Origin: Eledone cirrhosa
Taxonomy: Eukaryota
Direction: 5' to 3'
NCBI GenBank assembly: GCA_964016885.1
Contig: OZ024742.1
Span: 329,096,001 to 329,160,000, forward strand
DNA length: 64,000 bases
Below, piece by piece: positions 1 through 54,911 of this stretch; position 1 is the stretch's first letter; each line of letters opens with the position of its first letter. A program made the position numbers and the translations under genes. The notes beneath the pieces are model-generated. The model saw only the letters and a list, made by a program, of their open reading frames with translations. It searched no databases and was not told the origin of the DNA.

Positions 1-1104
1 CTCGGCACGATTTGAACTCAGAATGTACTGAGCTGAAACCAGCATTACAGAGCATTTTGATCGACGATCTAGCGTGTCTGCCAACCCAACTTCACCTTGT
101 CCCGTCTTAATTAAGAAAATCAACCGTCAATAATCTAGAACTATTTGAACCAGACGTGTTCTTTCATCTAGGATAACACAGTATAACACTATAGCGCACT
201 TAGATATATTAGTTAATCTTAGGGTAACAATGGAGAACATATATGTTTTTACTAAATAACGATAACACGTGAAAACAATTAGACATGTTAATATTTAACC
301 TATGGTAGCATTGTAGAAGAGTTGAATATGTCATAATTTAATCGAGTATAACTGTAGATATGTCATTAATAAACCTAGAATAACACTATATAACATATAG
401 GCATATTAGTTAATCTAACTTATCAGTAAGGAACATATGTGGACGTTGGACAGCTGAGCTATTAAGCTCAGTTCACAATTATGAGCTCCTAGGTTTGATT
501 CTATTGTGTGTCATTTTGGACAAGTGTCTTTACCATAGTTTCGAGTTAACTTAAGCCTTGTGAGTTAATTTGGAGCGGCCGAAATAGTATGGATGACTAT
601 GGGATGGATTGTACCAATAACATAAAAGGCCAGCCTTGTCAAAAATTGTGTCTTGCATTTAGCTAAAAAAAAGCGTCCAGGACACATTTTTAGAATATCA
701 ATTGCATACGCTATACTACAAGACAAATTGATCCATTTTAAAAATACCCAGCCATGTCACATTTTGCCACAGTGATCCGGCTTGGAAATTGTATTAACTG
801 TACATTACCTTGTGGGATACTCAACCCTTTACGCCTCAAGTCACGAATTTGTAGTTGCGTTGATCGAACAATCGAATGCTCATTCGTTAAATCGACGGAG
901 ACTTTAACATGTTTTGTTCAATACATCATTATACTGGCGGGGTGATTTCCTCAAATTACCTTAACACACACACATACACATACACACACACACTCTCTCG
1001 CACACACACAAACACACACACATACGCCCACACACACACACACACACAAACACCCCCCCCACACACACAGATATGTATATATGTATATATTTAATATAGA
1101 AATG

Positions 1105-1153
1105 GCTTCTACAGGTCTAGATCTGTTTCATTCGGGAGAAATCATCAGGAAGC
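1105..1153 (-). ncRNA. Type I hammerhead ribozyme (inverted copy)
   Basis: The reverse complement reads GCTTC CTGATGA TTTCTCCCGAAT GAAA CAG atctagac CTG TA GAAGC. Confidence 0.85.
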
Positions 1154-1162
1154 GCTTCCTGG

Positions 1163-1211
1163 GCTTCCTGATGATTTCTCCCGAATGAAACAGTTCAAGG
1201 CCTGTAGAAGC
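1163..1211 (+). ncRNA. Type I hammerhead ribozyme
   Basis: GCTTC-CTGATGA-tTTCtcccGAAt-GAAA-CAG..CTG-TA^GAAGC: stem I GCTTC/GAAGC, stem III CAG/CTG, GUA triplet. Confidence 0.85.
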
Positions 1212-1312
1212 AATTTCTATATTAAATATGTATACTCTGCTATACATTGAGTACCTTACTGTGGTTAGCCCGATTGTACTCGGTATAAACACACACATAT
1301 ATATATATATAC

Positions 1313-1367
<55 letters not shown>

Positions 1368-2280: not shown

Positions 2281-3087
2281 AGTATGTATACGTACATACA
2301 TATATGTATACAGACGTACAGTAGTATGTATATATATATACATACATGCACACATATATATATATAAGTATGTATACGTACATACATATATATATACATA
2401 CGTACAGTAGTATGTATATATATAAATACATGCACACATGTGTATATGTACGTATGGACTTACCGAACATTTATTATAATGTTCGGTTTGTTTGTAAACA
2501 AACATCCCGAATTAAGTCGTAGAGTATTTAGCAACCATCGTTGCCCTTTTGTTCAACACTGACAAAGGAACGATGTACTAAGCTTATTAGCTATCGTCAC
2601 CACCGTATACCTTCCTGCTAGATGATTGAACGTCTGAAAATATATACTTTCCTTATGCATATTAACGGCTGAGCAGCCTAATTTGCATATCGAGTGAGTT
2701 AATCGGCCGGGGGCACCGAAAACGATAAACGGAAAAAATGAAACGAAATTTCATTTCTCACACTTAGTACCGTTGTTACTTAAATATAAGTATGTATACG
2801 TACATACATATATGTATACAGACGTACAGTAGTATGTATATATATATACATACATGTACATATATATATATGTACGTATGGATTTACCGAACATTTATTA
2901 TAATGCTCCGTTTCTTTGTAAACAAATGTTCGGTAAATCCATACGTACATATATATATGTGTGCATGTATGTATATATATACATACTACTGTACGTCTGT
3001 ATACATATATGTATGTACGTATACATACTTATATTTAAGTAACTGCCGAATTAAGAGTGAGAAATGAAATTTCGTTTCATTTTTTCC

Positions 3088-3091
<4 letters not shown>
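2278..3091. mobile_element. Family A retrozyme-like repeat, more than one unit plus inverted arm
   Basis: Homologous to 5388-6215 and 31325-31821. The HHR at ~2570-2606 has lost GAAA. Flanked by (TA)n on both sides. Confidence 0.75.
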
Positions 3092-3154
<63 letters not shown>

Positions 3155-5387: not shown

Positions 5388-6211
5388 AAATGGAAAAGAA
5401 TGAAACAAAATTTCATTTCTCACTCTTAGTACGGCTGATACTTAAATGTAAGTATGTATGAATATGTACATACATATATGTATACAGACGTACAGTAGTA
5501 TGTATATATATACATACATGCACACATATATATATATATGTACGTATGGGTTTACCGAACATTTATTATAATGTTCGGTTTGTTCGTTTGTAAACAAACA
5601 GCCCGAATTACGCCGTACAGTGTTCAGGCAACCATTGTCGCCTTTTTGTTCAACAAATGACACAGGAATGATGTACTAGTTTCAACCTTATTAGCTATCG
5701 TCAACATCGTATACCTACCTGCCAGATGATTTAACGTCTGAAAGTATGTACTTTCCTTATGCATATTAACGGCTGAGCAGCCTAATTTGCATATCGAGTG
5801 AGATAGTCGGCCGGGTGAACCGAAAACGATAAATGAAAAAGAATGAAACGACTAACTCACTCGATATGCAAATTAGGCTGCTCAGCCGTTAATATGCACA
5901 AGGAAAGTATATACTTTCAGACGTTCAATCATCTGGCAGGAAGGTATACGATGCTGACGATAGCTAATAAGCTTGAAACTAGTTCATCGTTCCTGTGTCA
6001 GTGTTGAACAAAAAGGCGACAATGGTTGCCTGAACACTGTACGGCGTAATTCGGGCTGTGTGTTTGTTTACAAACGAACAAACCGAACATTATAATAAAT
6101 GTTCGGTAAACCCATACGTACATATATATATGTGTGCATGTATGTATATATATATATATACTACCGTACGTCTGTATACATATATGTATGTACGTATACA
6201 TACATACTTAC

Positions 6212-6215
<4 letters not shown>
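5388..6215. mobile_element. Family A retrozyme-like repeat, two copies head-to-head
   Basis: Left arm 5388-5850 (-), right arm ~5850-6215 (+). The unit restarts at 5831 (period 443). (TA)n flanks. Confidence 0.8.
5948..5990 (+). ncRNA. Minimal type I hammerhead (family A)
   Basis: ACGATG-CTGACGA-tAGCTaataAGCTt-GAAA-CTAG-TT^CATCGT with palindromic stem III ACTAGT. The mirror copy at 5668-5710 (-) has a C3U change. Confidence 0.85.
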
Positions 6216-6263
<48 letters not shown>

Positions 6264-10066: not shown

Positions 10067-10853
10067 TATATTTAGCGACAATGACATTTCGGCGAGTAGA
10101 AATTAGCGAAACGCAACTTCAGGATTGTGTCAGCAAGTGATCAATGGATATAAATATACCAGAGCTAAACATAAGTTAAATGCCATACAAAATTGAGATG
10201 ATGGTTAAGAAGCCATTAACCACCTAAGCCACAAAGCGAGCAAGCTAAGCGGGTGAAACAAAAACATAAGATTGAAATAATTACCCGGACCCTCAGGAAT
10301 GATCGTATAATCCGATATAGGGTTTCGGCGACTCCTAAATCAATAATACTGTCTGCTTATAAAAAATAATAAGCCTTTGGTACAATGATCCAACAAGAAA
10401 ATCACTTTCTCAACAGGTGTTTTGTTCAGGGTGCGTCAGGACTCCAGTGTTCAAAACACCTGTGAGGTCCAAAGGTGAGAAAACCCCTATTTTGGCAAAT
10501 GAATTCAATATGTGTAGTCATTGCAGACAATTTACAAAAAAACACAAAAAGAATTATAGATATATATAATTATATATATATATATATAATTATAAGAGAG
10601 TATTGAAGTTTGCTTGAAGCATTGTGGAATAATAAATAAATATATTTAAGTCGTTTGGAAGCCTCGACAATGCAAATGGGTAAATCTCCGGGTAACAAGA
10701 TCCGGTGGTGGAGAGAGAGATGTAAGTGGGTGTACGTTGAGATGCGTGGTGTGTAAAGATGTGTAAATGTGTGGAAGAAAGAAGGGAAGAGTATAAAGGA
10801 TAAAAGACAAATAACAACACAAGAGAGAGTTACCTTGGTAGAGATTTAATAGT

Positions 10854-10889
10854 CCCTATATATTTCGGATTCACATCCATCAACAGGGG
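10854..10889 (-). ncRNA. Hammerhead-like motif in the PLE pLTR
   Basis: CCC CTGTTGA tGGATgtgaATCC GAAA TATA TA GGG; core position 6 is non-canonical. A degenerate copy lies at 12859-12894 (+). Confidence 0.55.
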
Positions 10890-11273
10890 GTTTTTTTCCG
10901 GGGTAAAGGTTGTCTGTTGGACAGGTACGAAACGCGTCCCCCACTGTTTGTTGTTTTGAATATCAGAGGGATTCGGCAGAGCGCGCGTGCGCATGAAATG
11001 GGGTCGGTCGGACAGAGGTCAGCGGCCGAATGAGGGAGTGGGGTAGCGCTAGCTGTCAGTCCATTCTCTGCCTGTTTGTTAAATGTTACTGGGTTTGTGT
11101 GCGTGTGTTGTTGTCTCGCTTGAGTGTGTGTGTGTGCGCGTGTGTAGTTGCCTTGTTCCTCTGTATTGGCAGTGTAGTATGTTCGTATGGTGGAATGCTA
11201 CTGTGTGTGTGTGTGTGTGTAGTTGTCTCGTTTGTGTGTGCGTGTGTTGTGTGTTGCTACATCGTTTGTTAAC

Positions 11274-12720
11274 TTAAACCAGCCATCTCATTTCGCTTCT
11301 CTCTAATCGGTTGTTTATTTGTGGTTGCAGGCGTTTGATAAAAAGTGCTTCCTTGATACGTAACGTGCCGACGTTTCTTTCAGTCGCTAGAATTGTGACA
11401 ATGGGCCTTCCGTCTTTGTTTCCACATTTTTCTATGTGTTTCCGGATAGACGAGGCCCTGGTTTTAGTGTGTTCCTTGATCCGGATGTGCAAAGGTCGGA
11501 TTGTGCTACCTATGTAGTATTGGTTGCACCTGTCACATTCTATCTTATACACGACGTATGTGCGTAGGCAACAGGTCGCATGGCGTATCGGGCAGTCTCT
11601 GAGGGAGCATGCGTCAGTAGATTTCCCGGGTTTCTTGGAGAGGCATCTTCGCAGGGAGGGGCCCGAGTGGGCCAGGTGGATGTCGAGGCCCTCCCTCCGT
11701 ATAGCCTTGCGGATAGCGTTGGTGGTATTCTCGCCCAGATGTGGAATTTTAAGGAAGCACTTGCCTTGGGTGCCTCTCTGTCTCTTCTATCTGGTGTCTC
11801 CTATTCTGTCTGTGATCGAGGTAGGGTACCCGTTCGTCTCCAGCACCTCGAGGAATCGCTTGGTATGAGTGACACCACTCGCGGGATCGCTGCATCTGTT
11901 TTTGATTCGCGCGATCTCGTTCGTGATGTATCCTCTTTTGGCACTGTTCGGGAGGGCGGACTTGTAGTGAACGAACAGGTCCCTGCAGGCTGCCTTTCGG
12001 TAGAAGTTGCAGTGGATACTTCCCTGTTCCGTGATGTTGATTCGGAAGTCGAGGAGGGCAAGTGACCCGTCTTCGTTGGGGTGTTCAACACTGAAGTCAA
12101 TGTTCTCGTCCGTGTTGTTGAACGTCTCATAGATTCTGTTCGCCGTGTCTTGGGAAGATGTGAGGATGAGGATATCGTCCACGTACCTTGAGAAAAAGGC
12201 TACGGCGTTGGGGTGGTAGTCGTTGAGTGCCTTGCGTTCGAGGTTGTCCATGTAAGAGATCGCTAGCACACCTGATAGGCTTGATCCCATGGGCAATCCC
12301 GAGGTTTGTTGGTATGTTTGGTCAAGGAATCCGAAGTAGGTGTTGTCGACGACGATGGATAGGAGTTGGTGGATGTCAGTGGTGGTGAGCCCGAAGCAGT
12401 GTAATTAGGTGGATTGGACGCGTTCCATCAGTATATTGACGGCCGGGAGTGCCGGGACGGGGGTGTAGAGAGCGACTACATCAAGGCTGAAGGCATATCT
12501 GTTATTCCTTCTGGTGTCGGGATCCATTTGATGCAGGCGCTTCAACACCTCCTCGGAGCTTTTAACGTGTCCCGGCAAGGTGTCTAAGATGGGTTTGAGT
12601 ATTCTGGCTAGGAGCCAAGAAATTTCGTAGAGTGGTCCCTCCACGCTCGATACGATGGGCCTGATCTTCAGGTCGGGTCCCTGTTTGTGTGTTTTCACGA
12701 GTTAGTAGAAGGCGGGTAGT
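11274..12720 (-). pseudogene. PLE reverse transcriptase plus GIY-YIG endonuclease, one frame with nonsense codons
   Basis: ORFs 12405-12698, 11787-12296 and 11274-11552 share one frame. Motifs: KTHK..IRPIVS, SLDVVALY, PMGSSLSG, RYVDD, linker CSLRDCPIRHATCC, VYKIECDRCNQYYIGST..RIKEH. Interrupted by TAA (12405) and TAG (11787). Confidence 0.93.
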
Positions 12721-13235
12721 CAGCAGTTCCTCTGCCAGACCGACCCCATTTCACGCGCACGCGCGCTCTGCCGAATACCTCAGATATTCAAAACAACAAA
12801 CAGCGGAGGACGCGTTTCACACCTGTCCGACAGACAACCTTTACCCCGGAAACAAACCCCCCAGTTGATGGACGTGAATCCGAAATATATAGGGACTATT
12901 AAATCTCTCCCAAGGTAACTCTCTCTTGCGTTGTTATTATAATTTTATCCTTTATACTCTTCCCTTCTTTCTTCCACACATTTACACATCTTTACACACC
13001 ACGCATCTCAACGTACACTCACTTACATCTCTCTCTCCACCACCGGATCTTGTTACCCGGAGATTTACCCATTTGCATTGTCGAGGCTTCCAAACGACTT
13101 AAAGATATTTATTCATATATATTTATATATATATATAATTATATATATATATATAATTATAAATAATTATATATATTTATATAATTATATATATTTATAT
13201 AATTATATATATATATATAATTATATATATATATA

Positions 13236-13656: not shown

Positions 13657-14475
<819 letters not shown>

Positions 14476-16280: not shown

Positions 16281-16811
16281 TAAAATATTGAATTCTAGCA
16301 CGTTCTAGCACGCGGCCTGAATTCCTTTTAGAATTCATTGTCCTGCGCATGTATTGTTTTTTTGGCGGTAATATCATTTTTGAATCAGTTTGAGTATTTC
16401 TTTGAAACTGCTGCAGTAGCAACCTAACAGATACCCCAGGCACTGTTGGTGAATATCGCTAAATACTGATATTGGTTAGATTATCAATATTAGTATTATT
16501 GGGCACCCACTGATGAATTATAAGAGCCCACTTGAATATTATATGTTGATCGTATACACACTCCTACATAAATTGGTATAATTTCACTCAAATTGTAGGA
16601 ATCTTATAATGAAACGAGACGTCCGTCTGGGAAGACGATATGTCTTATATGAAATAATACAGCCAATTTTCCACACAATACATTTAGTTAACACCACGAA
16701 CGTTTAATTATAATATACTCACTAGTTTCTAATGTTTGTTGAGTGAGTTGGAATTTGGCCGGAGTATCGCAAAAAGCTTTCTCCCTTAATGCATTTATAT
16801 ATATGTATATA

Positions 16812-16975
16812 TATTGAAGTTTCCGTTGAAAATTGAAAAAGTCAGAGGAATGAAGAATGCTATATGTAAGTTACAGATCTAAATTAAATATATATATATA
16901 TAATTTAGCTCTGTAACTTACATAGAGCACTCTTCATTCCACTCACTTTTTCAATTTTCAGCGGAAACTGCAATA
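16812..16975. repeat. Diverged foldback with ~70-bp arms and a (TA)n apex
   Basis: gtttccgttgaaaattgaaaaagt.. pairs with ..actttttcaattttcagcggaaac; no HHR seen. Confidence 0.75.
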
Positions 16976-17005
16976 CTTATATATTTTATATATATATTTT
17001 ATATA

Positions 17006-17265: not shown

Positions 17266-17455
17266 ACCAAAGATTAATATGGATCATTGATTACTCAGTG
17301 AATCTAGTTTTACAATAGATTAAAAGCACTCTACTGTCAGTTTTTTGGAGTTATTAATATTCAAAATATTAATAAATGAAGACATTCACATAATCAAAAT
17401 ATATGTTTTATTATATATATTTCGAAGGTACTGAGGTGTTTTTTCGGTACATGTA

Positions 17456-17517
17456 TTTTATCTGACGAGGACGTACTGAAAAAACACCTCAGTACCTTCT
17501 AAATATATATAATAAAA
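17456..17517 (+). ncRNA. Hammerhead with a G12 mutation, in foldback 17355-17568
   Basis: TTTTAT CTGACGA GGAcGTACTGA..TCAGTACcTTC (T)AAA TATATA TA^ATAAAA; the inverted arm keeps GAAA. Confidence 0.7.
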
Positions 17518-17562
17518 CATATATTTTGATTATGTGAATGTCTTCATTTATTAATATTTTGC

Positions 17563-17598
<36 letters not shown>

Positions 17599-22874: not shown

Positions 22875-23713
22875 ATGTCTATATATATATATGTGTGTGT
22901 GTATGTGTATATATATGCGTGTGTATGTATATATATATGTGTGTGTATCTATATATATATGTATGTGTGTATCTATATATATATATGTGTGTGTATCTAT
23001 ATATATATATGTGTGTGTATCTATATATATATATGTGTGTGTATATATATATATGTGTACTTTTGTGTATGATGTCTATGTGCACATGTCTCTATACAAT
23101 ACACACATGCACGCATACACACGCACGTGTGTGAACGCGTCGGCATGGAATGAACAAAATGATGGTGACACCTAGTAATAGGCGTTAAATTCTCCTTCCA
23201 ATTACATCCCAATATCTTAAGAGACTTAACGGGTTGGAGCTTATCTCATTTTCATTGGTGTTAAGCGACAGATTAAAAGACTCCAGTCTGGACGGAAGGC
23301 CTGTCTATTGTAGTTTGTTTACACCATTGCTGCTGCAACTACATAATCTTTTTAACAGAATGAAGTATCTTAATATTTTATTTCGTGGTTATTCGTTGTC
23401 ATCGGTTTTCAAATATTCTCCGTATGATGAGTTGTTCAGAAGGGATGGAGATGTCATTTTATTATTTCTTGCTCTACAGGTGGCTGGATAATCAGATTTA
23501 TTAAAGAATAAAAGTGGATGAAATCTAAAAAAAAATCTGCCAAGTACTGGCGTCGATTTAATCAATTAATTAATACATTAACCTCACAAATCTGATTCTC
23601 TGTCGATTTAAAATATTAATAATAAATGTTGTTGTTTCCTTAGTTTTTTTTTTTGTTTTATGCAGTTGATGTTGATTTATATATTTAAATTTTCCACTAT
23701 TTTTCTTTAACAG

Positions 23714-24332
23714 GAACCAAATGCCAGTGACAATTAAGGGACAGATAACCATGGAAAAAACACCAAGTTACTTCATCACACGAGATGTTCCACGTCGAAT
23801 CCACAGTATGTCAAAAGATGTGAAATTGATCGTTGTTGTACGTGATCCTGTCACCCGTGCTATCTCTGATTATACACAAACTATGACCAAAAGACACATG
23901 TTACGCCAGTTCGAACAAATGGCATTTGTCAATAACAACACACGGATTGTGGACACATCGTGGGGAGCTATCCGAATAGGTGTATATGCTAAGCATCTTC
24001 AGTCTTGGTTGAAGTATTTCCCACTAGAACAAATGCATTTTGTTAGCGGCGAGAAATTAATTTCAGATCCTGCCGGAGAAATGACATTATTACAAGATTT
24101 TCTCGGACTTAAACGGGTCATTAATGAAAAACACTTTTTCTTTAACGAAACAAAAGGTTTTCCTTGTTTGAAGAAAATAGAAGGCAGTGGTCACCCGCAC
24201 TGTTTAGGTAAAACTAAGGGTCGCCAGCATCCAGCAATAGACCCACGTGTAATTCAAAGATTGAGGGACTTTTATCGGCCATTTAACACAAAATTTTATA
24301 GTATGGCAAAACGGAATTTTGAGTGGCCCTGA
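23714..24332 (+). CDS. HS3ST: Heparan sulfate glucosamine 3-O-sulfotransferase, terminal coding exon (HS3ST2/3/4/6- or Hs3st-B-like)
   Basis: Translation has [26 protein letters not shown] (3'-PAPS-binding), KGFPC and [13 protein letters not shown] polypyrimidine tract and AG acceptor (ttttctttaacag|G) lie at 23713; the phase-2 junction matches the conserved WYR intron of two-exon HS3ST genes. Stop TGA is at 24330-24332. The 5'-PSB exon (IGVKKGGT) was not seen in the window. Confidence 0.95.
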
Positions 24333-30324: not shown

Positions 30325-30494
30325 AAGTATATATCCCTACACGCAAAAAGCGTCTAGGGACACATGTATTGTCCAACCATATGCCAATGTGGTTCAATGG
30401 CAGGTTAATAAATTAACGAGCCAGAACATATATAATCAAGGTTTAGCAAATAAGAAAAAGATTCAAAATAAATTTTAAAATATTCCCTGTGGTT

Positions 30495-30582
30495 ACCTTT
30501 ACCGAATCGGTTTCGAGTCTCAAAAATAAATGGACAGTCCCTTGCGGCCTTCCATTGAAAAGATAAACTCTCGTCAGAAGGT
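30495..30582 (-). ncRNA. Type I hammerhead with extended stem II
   Basis: ACCTT CTGACGA GAGTTT[~44 nt]AGACTC GAAA CCG att CGG TA^AAGGT. A diverged inverted copy lies at 30923-31008 (+), within inverted repeat 30429-30668 / 30837-31082. Confidence 0.85.
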
Positions 30583-31098
30583 TCTTTTCACTCGGAGAAT
30601 TTAAAATACCCGAGTTCAAATTACGAACTGGCGCTATTCAAAATTGTTCCCGAGATGAGAATGAATGATAATATATATATTTGCGTGTAGGGATATTTAC
30701 TTTATTATTATTATACTCCTATTGGTCGAGAAAAAATTTGGTCGTTTTGACTGCTGCTATTTATAGTGGTAGTAGACTGACCTCCCTGCCTCTGCTTCTA
30801 TCTTTACACACGGCACTAGACAGAATTGCTTCCACCTCATTCATTCTCATCTCGGGAACAATTTTGAATAGCGCCAGTTCGTAATTTGAACTCGGGGATT
30901 TTATATTCTCCGAGTGAAAAGAAACTTCTGACGAGAGTTTATCTTTTCAAAGGAAGGGCGCTAGGACTGTCCATTTATTTTTGAGACTCGAAACGATTCT
31001 GTAAAGATAACCATAGTGAGTACAGTGAATTTTTAGAAATTTATTTTGAAACCCTTTCTTATTTGCTAAACCTTGATTATATATATATATATATATAT

Positions 31099-31315: not shown

Positions 31316-31324
31316 TATATATAT

Positions 31325-31821
31325 AAATGGAATAGAATGAAACGATATTTCATTTCTCACTCTTAGTCGGCACTTACTTAAATGTAAGTATGTATACAGA
31401 CGTACAGTAGTATGTATATATATATACATACATGCACACACATATATATATATATACACACGTATCGGTTTACCGAACATTTATTATAATGGTCGGTTTG
31501 TTTGTTTGTAAACAAACAAACAGCCCGAATTACGCCGTACAGTGTTTAGGCAACCACGTCACCTTTTTGTTCAACACTGACACAGGAACGGTGTACTAGT
31601 TTCAAGCTTATTAGCTATCGTCAGCATCGTATACCTTCCTGCCAGATGGTTGAACGTCTGAAAGTATATACTTTTCTGATGCATATTAACGGCTGAGCAG
31701 CCTAATTTGCATATCGAGTGAGTTTAGTCGGCCGGGCACACCGAAAACGATAAATGGAAAAGAATGAAAGGAAATTTCATTTCTCACTCTTAATACGGCA
31801 CTTACTTAAATGTAAGTATGT
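31325..31821 (-). mobile_element. Family A retrozyme-like repeat, ~1.15 units
   Basis: The unit start aaatggaa recurs at 31325 and 31752 (period 427). Confidence 0.8.
31588..31630 (-). ncRNA. Minimal type I hammerhead (family A)
   Basis: ACGATG CTGACGA TAGCTAATAAGCTT GAAA CTAG TA^CACCGT; intact core with one stem I mismatch. Confidence 0.85.
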
Positions 31822-40175: not shown

Positions 40176-40760
<585 letters not shown>

Positions 40761-40792
40761 AGATCAAAAGATGGTTAAAGGAGTTCCATGTA

Positions 40793-40859
40793 TTTTATTA
40801 TGCGCATTTCAAAAACAAACATCATCATGCAATAATATTTGTGTTTTCATCAGATAAAA
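40793..40859 (-). ncRNA. Type I hammerhead ribozyme (inverted copy, foldback 40754-41066)
   Basis: Reverse complement of 40961-41027 with the core intact. Confidence 0.85.
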
Positions 40860-40960
40860 CAGGAGAACATGATATGAAGGCTAAAGAACACTTGTGGATA
40901 GTGCAGTTTTAAATCAACATATCCACAAGTGTTGTTTAGCCTTCACATCATGTTCTCCTG

Positions 40961-41027
40961 TTTTATCTGATGAAAACACAAATATTATTGCATGATGATG
41001 TCTGTTTTTGAAATGCGCATAATAAAA
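40961..41027 (+). ncRNA. Type I hammerhead ribozyme
   Basis: TTTTAT CTGATGA AAACA..TGTTTtt GAAA TGCGCA TA^ATAAAA. Confidence 0.85.
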
Positions 41028-41151
41028 TACATGGAACTCCTTTAACCATCTTTTGATCTCATATTATGTATACTCCAGTCCTACAAACTGTAGAGTGCTT
41101 CTTATCCGATATCTGCATTGCTTTATTGTACTACAATAAAACTCACCTCCT

Positions 41152-41510
<359 letters not shown>

Positions 41511-49521: not shown

Positions 49522-49634
49522 GTATATATATATATATATATACTTTATATATATATATATATATATAAATATACTTTATATATATATATATATAATATTA
49601 ATAAATGGACACTATCTTTATAAAACCATATTTA

Positions 49635-49693
49635 TTTTATTATATATATTTCAAGGGTACCAACATTTTTTGGTACGCACTCATCAGAGAAAA
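49635..49693 (-). ncRNA. Type I hammerhead in foldback 49596-49921
   Basis: TTTTCT CTGATGA ..GTACCAA aaaatg TTGGTAC.. GAAA TATATA TA^ATAAAA. A degenerate plus copy lies at 49829-49881. Related to the 17.4 kb motif. Confidence 0.75.
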
Positions 49694-50086
49694 TACAAAA
49701 GTTCTTTTATAGATAGTGACATGTCCAAAAACAAGAACTTATCGTTTTAAGTTCTGATTGAATATTCAAACAGAACTTAAAACGATAAGTTCTTGTTCTT
49801 GAATATGTCACTATCTATAAAACAACATCTAATGATTGCGTACCAAAAAATGTTGGTACCCTTGAAATATATATAATAAAATAAATATGGTTTTATAAAG
49901 ATAGTGTCCATTTATTAATATAGTTTCCATTATTTCCATAATTTATAAATATAGTTACCATTAATATTATTGATATTATACTCCAGAAGAAATCTCTAGA
50001 TTGCTTCGAATCTGTTATAAATTAATTTGTTGAATAACCAACAAATAAAATGAAATATATATATATATTAAATAATATATTAAATA

Positions 50087-54303: not shown

Positions 54304-54341
<38 letters not shown>

Positions 54342-54342
<1 letters not shown>

Positions 54343-54911
54343 TTAAATTCTCATACTCTACAACAAATAACATAAAACAAAATATAAGTGCCTATAATGC
54401 ATATAAATGTAAGAAAACCATAAGTATACCACCAGTACATCAAATTAACCATAATATCTCCTCAAATACAGAATTAACGAAAGGTTGTAACTGTAGAAAC
54501 AAAGCAAACTGCCCATTAAAAGGGAATTGTCTTGTTAACAACATAGTCTATAAATGTAATGTTAAAACTAAAGATTCTATTTGCTCATATATAGGAGCTA
54601 CCTCTAACAATTATAAGACAAGGTTTAATACCCACAAGCATAGTTTTAAAAATGCCGCACTGGCTAATACAACATCTCTAGCAGAAAAAATCAATACTTA
54701 TAAAAATAAGAATATAGAATATGATTTGACCTGGAGTGTGCTCAAAAGAGCCACCCCTTATCAAAATAATAGAAATGAATGTAGATTATGTTCCCAAGAA
54801 CTATTTGAAATAATGAAATCTAAGGATATCCTATTAAATAAACGACAGGAATTAATTATATCGTGTAATCATAAACTAAAAAAAACATTTAAATATTATA
54901 AACCTAACTAA
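54342..54911 (+). pseudogene. C-terminal GIY-YIG endonuclease region of a 5'-truncated PLE
   Basis: Manual translation is open for ~190 codons: VKFSYSTTNN..CNCRNKANCPLKGNCLVNNIVYKC..SYIGATSNNYKTRFNTHKHSF..WSVLKRA..CRLCSQE..LLNKRQELIISCNHK. There is no start codon and the 5' end joins a microsatellite. Confidence 0.88.

Follow-up and report, generated by a model that had tools for sequence, protein, structure and literature searches.

A foldback of 205 nt lies near the left end of the window, the 64,000-nt stretch of the Eledone cirrhosa assembly (GCA_964016885.1, contig OZ024742.1) that was analysed. It consists of an inverted repeat whose two arms (1084-1153 and 1163-1232), 70 nt each and 93% complementary, are separated by a 9-nt spacer, which bears out an earlier note's description of a hairpin of about 150 bp, and of a tail of about 56 nt, present on one arm only as that note had said (1233-1288, + strand; put there at about 55 nt). 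The short, inverted arm (1087-1153, - strand) is read as a copy of a pLTR end without its tail, the outer edge of which is blurred by the (TA)n flank at 1084-1087, and the long, direct arm of the pLTR end occupies 1163-1232 (+). Between them, the junction sequence (1154-1162) is a 9-nt imperfect repeat of the arm start that creates a 16-bp palindrome at 1146-1161, and G1162 could lengthen stem I by pairing with a C present in the short arm. The whole is embedded in an (AC)n(AT)n microsatellite, represented by the left flank at 1061-1089 (+) and by the right flank at 1289-1362 (+), the inferred target. Positions 1061-1089 and 1289-1317 are identical at 25 of 29 sites, a possible target-site duplication that is ambiguous in that both sides are microsatellite. 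The hairpin has a predicted stability of -121.5 kcal/mol (z -20.4), which was equalled in none of 200 shuffles.

Each arm carries a type I hammerhead motif, and a descriptor scan returns exactly the coordinates first proposed for them, 1105-1153 on the - strand (predicted cut 1110/1109) and 1163-1211 on the + strand (loop III 1194-1201, predicted cut 1206/1207). Both have a stem I of 5 bp, CUGAUGA (1168-1174 on the + strand; from 1148 on the - strand), a stem II of 3 bp with a U·U pair at its base, GAAA, a stem III of 4 bp with an 8-nt loop, and a GUA cleavage triplet, so that the elements of the type I core (CUGANGA, GAAA, UH and a three-way junction closed by stem I) are found in both arms. 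The description of these hammerheads as intact holds for the core, and is a statement about sequence only. The G10.1-C11.1 pair is absent from the stem II base of both arms and replaced by the U·U pair, which is a known natural variant because, counted by eye, it occurs in 14 of the 25 Hydra-clade hammerheads tabulated in PMC8557442 (File S2). Six hammerheads in the window satisfy the strict descriptor, compared with means of 0.005 to 0.03 for two sets of 200 Markov-null sequences. Rfam reports no hammerhead family here at the gathering score, nor among 32 matches at E<=10, and its miRNA-precursor matches are below the gathering score and reflect the hairpin only.

A short element with inverted arms and a TA-rich target might also be a MITE or another DNA transposon with terminal inverted repeats (TIRs), in which hammerhead-like words had arisen by chance. 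In such an element the TIRs bound the whole, whereas the tail here stands outside the inverted repeat and on one side only, and the hammerhead match is far above chance and extends to Hydra-clade details; this explanation deserves next to no credence.

The arms are mismatched at five positions, 1194, 1197 and 1200 (all in loop III), 1212 and 1230, the last at the transition from the short arm to the (TA)n flank. As previously noted, the differences that fall within the hammerhead are confined to the stem III loop, with 1212 and 1230 outside the motif. Loop III thus holds three of the four true arm differences, a clustering (uncorrected p about 0.004 to 0.009) that simple decay does not explain and that is a single observation among the many loops inspected.

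Ribozyme folding within the hairpin

Dimeric hammerheads of Penelope-like elements (PLEs) were reportedly described by Lunse and colleagues in 2017. In the present foldback, the stem III region of the motif at 1105-1153 (-) is near-palindromic (14 of 16 pairs in the dimer register, -15.6 kcal/mol), and that of the motif at 1163-1211 (+) is a weaker palindrome (12 of 16 pairs, -7.1 kcal/mol). The loop III changes of the right arm account for this predicted fall in the stability of the dimer helix and also permit a competing helix with stem I, and they are accordingly predicted not to be harmless.

In a secondary-structure model that excludes tertiary contacts and protein, the probability of the catalytic fold is predicted to be 0.016 (+) and 0.047 (-) for the isolated motifs, 3.5e-9 (+) and 1.5e-3 (-) for RNAs that start at the centre of the hairpin, and 1.1e-49 (+) and 6.6e-43 (-) for read-through RNA. 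Because the arrangement is head-to-head, transcription of either strand reaches the antisense copy ahead of the ribozyme, and the ribozymes of read-through RNA are predicted to be fully occluded, that is, silenced rather than balanced against the hairpin. The proposal of the earlier note, that transcription from either strand meets a ribozyme and yields a long dsRNA that competes with ribozyme folding, stands insofar as a hammerhead is encoded on each strand and a long dsRNA is possible; what is predicted in place of competition is full occlusion by an antisense arm that comes first.

Foldbacks elsewhere in the window

Self-BLAST of the window yielded 20 local inverted repeats, from which 12 were kept and eight dropped (microsatellite, SINE-like pairs, short hairpins and cross-pairs of neighbours); with three family copies and one coding element added, the foldback set numbers 16. 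Most of these have a one-sided tail and are located in (TA)n. CTGANGA is present on both arms in three of the 16 and strict hammerheads on both arms in two (the 1084-1290 locus and 40748-41072); some of the remainder keep one core, others only the 3' half of the motif, and some nothing of it. The arm differences of the other foldbacks show no general protection of the cores, with C3, G12 and other core bases altered, and the loop III clustering does not recur in the other foldbacks. The selection on both ribozymes that had been implied for the hairpin finds no support in this, given that other foldbacks have arm differences at core bases.

Extensive A-to-I editing occurs in coleoid cephalopods, and a very stable hairpin could have been co-opted by the host, either as dsRNA for editing or small RNAs or as a ribozyme switch or bidirectional terminator. 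No A-to-I signature is evident in the arm differences of the nine clean foldbacks among 13 aligned, where 45 differences comprise six sense-type and 11 antisense-type transitions and 28 transversions. The hairpin is moreover one of many similar decaying foldbacks, and 22 kb separate it from the closest host exon identified, all of which makes co-option very unlikely. That exon (23712-24329, +) is the last of a heparan sulfate 3-O-sulfotransferase gene and is 92% identical to the Argonauta hians protein and 87% to that of Octopus bimaculoides, which by itself points to an octopod host, probably an argonautoid.

Several further foldbacks and elements are of note in their own right. At 40748-41160, strict type I hammerheads are found on both arms (40791-40861, -, and 40959-41029, +), together with a palindromic loop III and a tail of about 80 nt; measured from the tail motif, the short arm of this unrelated family has the same end point as that of the 1084-1290 foldback. 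The 10590-13110 element (-) is a 5'-truncated, stop-broken Penelope-like element with RT and GIY-YIG regions and a linker that is Nematis-like by eye; its 3' end is repeated as an inverted pLTR of about 390 bp, and it has a tail and a minimal hammerhead, the latter decayed. Sequences at 14350, 29817, 36546, 40409, 40593 and 44765 belong together as a family in which CUGANGA is missing and the fold-back lies just upstream of GAAA, which suggests a snap-back hot spot near stem II; in this multi-copy family (14350, 29817, 40409, 44765 and others) the junctions vary between independent copies. A duplicated pair with (AT)n between its members lies at 40409-40710. The Rfam match Plastid-psbJ-2 at 40599-40773 (-) passes its gathering score and was rejected as a false positive on a retrotransposon foldback and (AT)n. 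A second family (5443-6216, 2725-3093, 2247-2502 and 31321-31821) contains nested and inverted copies, and a hammerhead with a U·U stem II base was noted at 5948-5990 (+) with a C3-mutated partner at 5670-5708 (-). Foldbacks at 17355-17568, 49595-49921 and 30428-31084 have hammerheads with a long stem II, one arm being mutated or truncated in each, and 13690-14110 is a near-perfect palindrome (one mismatch in 195 aligned positions) without a full hammerhead core. Lastly, an ORF at 54327-54911 (+) resembles a Hydra-clade GIY-YIG endonuclease by eye, was given no call by Pfam, and is followed by three AT-rich repeats.

Assemblies are known to go wrong at palindromes (PMC8557442), and the 1084-1290 hairpin could in principle be an assembly or library foldback artefact. 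A chimera of this kind would give identical arms, whereas these differ at five sites and flank an asymmetric junction, and the common end point of the short arm at 1084-1290 and at 40748-41160 is a further argument against it; an artefact is accordingly held to be highly improbable.

A comparable arrangement was also observed among metagenome loci. Contig L025 (1-936) carries, as a head-to-head pair with unequal arms, an unrelated minimal-hammerhead family seen also in L011 and L013, the short copies of which break off a few bases ahead of a TGAGTATT word retained by the long ones. The recurrence of the build across the foldbacks of the window, the 10590-13110 element and L025 indicates that it is generic. 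A marine contig (L017, 951-3935) holds six dispersed type I hammerheads with a long GC-rich stem III, and L009 has one like them.

Tail motif and tail frame

The tail of the 1084-1290 foldback opens with ACTC-N11-GAGTAC (1234-1254, +), a motif common to other foldback families in the window. The relaxed form ACTC-N9-19-GAGTRC, identified post hoc, was matched seven times across the window (null mean 0.8), each time at a foldback tail; four of the matches come from one family, and about five independent families have the motif. When the outer pair is allowed to be any complementary one (NCTC...GAGN), 10 matches are found against a null mean of 1.85 (maximum 6 in 150), eight of them at foldbacks, compared with four matches for a non-complementary outer pair against a null mean of 5.2. 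One complementary match is a G-C version of the motif and lies inside 16810-16983, itself a foldback of tail-like sequence on either side of an (AT)n run, without a ribozyme. By eye, two of five published Hydra 3' ends have the G-C version, one has a close variant and two stop earlier (PMC8557442). The swap from A-T to G-C suggests that the tail starts with an RCTC...GAGY stem. Taken singly, the tails fold no better than shuffles (z -0.44 here; -0.44 to -2.36 over six tails). That a conserved stem of this kind is the signal on which the Hydra-type reverse transcriptase loads throughout the clade is put forward tentatively, at somewhat below even odds.

An open frame (1189-1290) spans the tail, and in four families an I/V-E-Y/C-L/F word shares the reading frame of the ribozyme. 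In two families (1175-1290 and 40970-41155), the AUG of the core, a UGA at 11.1-13 and the GAG word of the tail share one frame. A profile search of longer proteins gave none of 394 candidates at E<=10, and the single phmmer match, a repetitive ORF, was judged spurious; several of the frames contain stops, and a coding role for the tail found support in neither search.

Probable Penelope-like origin and known systems

In the most probable reading, to which we assign a probability of roughly 85%, the foldback is what a Hydra-clade Penelope-like retrotransposon left behind when it inserted with severe 5' truncation; its ribozymes are predicted to be occluded, and the second of them would be a by-product. 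The features of PLE ends that are found here include an inverted 5'-truncated copy adjoining a direct copy, a one-sided tail and a hammerhead within the pLTR. According to Craig et al. (2021), inverted 5'-truncated copies, a one-sided tail of 30-40 bp and microsatellite targeting are standard for PLEs (PMC8557442). The clade was assigned by comparing RNA features by eye with Files S1 and S2 of that study, no coding sequence being attached to the foldback, and is based on the U·U stem II base, the 4-bp stem III (22 of 25 Hydra-clade families, by eye) and the (TA)n target, which is preferred in 26 of 27 entries of the Hydra sheet of the supplement; the ACAG/CUGU stem of the foldback recurs in four of the 25 families, also by eye (PMC8557442). 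Counting against the assignment are a loop III of 8 nt, compared with 1-3 nt in all 25 families tabulated, and the length of the tail, 56 nt as opposed to the 30-40 nt quoted for PLEs. No second copy of the foldback's family and no homologous full element were found in the window, and blastn against 26 metagenome loci (drawn from a degenerate hammerhead pattern scan) gave no match to the foldback.

The arrangement itself is ordinary and has already been published for PLEs, of which it is probably debris: for Penelope-13_HM the ribozyme is listed on each strand, together with a truncated copy in inverted orientation, an Octopus family (Hydra-1_Obim) belongs to the Hydra clade (PMC8557442), and Cervera and de la Pena (2014) reported opposite-strand pairs of minimal hammerheads 100-700 bp apart, with low, dimer-dependent activity (PMC4209133). 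Identification as a Penelope-like pLTR and tail, which the earlier note does not make, accounts for the ribozyme on each strand, for the tail and for the microsatellite site, and calls for no regulatory role. The literature cited further includes PMC13282606, PMC6765202 and PMC8969392; a literature search covering few subscription papers turned up no report of hammerhead foldbacks from octopod PLEs, nor any of the tail motif.

The insertion would have begun with the nicking of a (TA)n target by the RT/GIY-YIG protein of the parent element, and reverse transcription would have started on an uncleaved RNA, at its tail end. An uncleaved template agrees with the intact core, which would be missing from a copy made on cleaved RNA; in Poseidon PAc the ribozyme needs protein and the substrate for insertion in vitro was uncleaved RNA (PMC11167929). 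After about 130 nt, synthesis may have halted on reaching the 5' edge of stem I of the hammerhead, whereupon the cDNA would have folded back or switched template and copied itself. Palindromes at inverted junctions have been read as a sign of self-priming (Arkhipova et al., 2013; PMC3846280). Self-copying would have ended at a second start site just before the tail, leaving one arm shorter, in keeping with the account of Frangieh et al. (2024), in which two RT start sites delimit the tail (PMC11167929). The second ribozyme would be a by-product of the inversion, and the foldback copy would have decayed afterwards.

The whole 205-nt foldback could instead be a mobile non-autonomous unit whose transcript, in hairpin form, is reinserted by a Penelope-like enzyme and whose two ribozymes are maintained by selection. 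Both cores and all stems are indeed intact, the centre coincides with the ribozyme boundary, and the differences lie only in loop III and outside the motif; pLTR sequences have been reported sufficient for mobilisation in trans (PMC3846280), and tandem non-autonomous PLE derivatives are on record (bioRxiv 10.64898/2026.07.22.740005). The foldback is however a single copy in the window, core mutations occur in other foldbacks, and the ribozymes are predicted to be unable to fold in read-through RNA. The junctions that differ between independent copies of the multi-copy family, moreover, favour formation at insertion over spreading as a unit, and mobility of the foldback is considered unlikely. 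Little probability likewise attaches to the combined proposal that the foldback is itself mobile, that the hairpin keeps its ribozymes off so that the RNA stays whole, and that RCTC...GAGY is the clade-wide RT loading signal.

As retrotransposon debris of published build, the locus is of little weight in itself. Under the preferred reading as a truncated Hydra-clade insertion, the foldback is a natural example, reduced to its minimum, of what Penelope inversion plus tail formation yields, a mechanism still without an explanation, and the shared tail motif, with its A-T to G-C swap, names a putative cis-signal that is mutable in an existing in vitro system. Sixteen foldbacks in 64 kb also suggest that remnants of this kind, if transcribed, make up a dense potential source of long dsRNA in octopod genomes.

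Among the closest known systems are the Hydra-clade PLEs (for example Penelope-13_HM, Hydra-1_Amil, Penelope-1_NV, Hydra-2_Ajap and Hydra-1_Obim). They have in common with it a type I hammerhead near the 3' end, the U·U stem II base and a short stem II, the 4-bp stem III, the GUA cut and the (TA)n target, an inverted truncated copy that places a ribozyme on each strand, and a tail with CTC...GAG(T/C)A (PMC8557442). The foldback differs from them in lacking an ORF, in the separation of its arms by only 9 nt at stem I, and in its larger loop III and longer tail. The minimal hammerheads share the type I topology, a short stem I, a palindromic stem III region and occurrence in opposite-strand pairs, which in their case are the more widely spaced; unlike theirs, the stem III of the foldback can be closed as a monomer, and G10.1-C11.1 is absent (PMC4209133). 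Poseidon PAc of Anolis is alike in its AT-rich target, in a tail defined by two ends and in inserts that keep the whole ribozyme, and its ORF begins inside the ribozyme (PMC11167929), whereas protein searches gave the tail frame of the foldback no such support.

The non-LTR retrozymes are likewise non-coding and PLE-derived and have a type I hammerhead, but are head-to-tail tandem repeats (bioRxiv 10.64898/2026.07.22.740005), whereas the foldback is a single head-to-head inversion. A retrozyme reading was rejected; the locus has no tandem units besides the microsatellites, and head-to-tail units with a hammerhead were not found there. Viroid-like RNAs with ribozymes in both polarities carry distinct motifs in a circular replicon. 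They resemble the foldback in having a hammerhead on each strand, and the foldback differs in that it holds two copies of one motif in chromosomal DNA.
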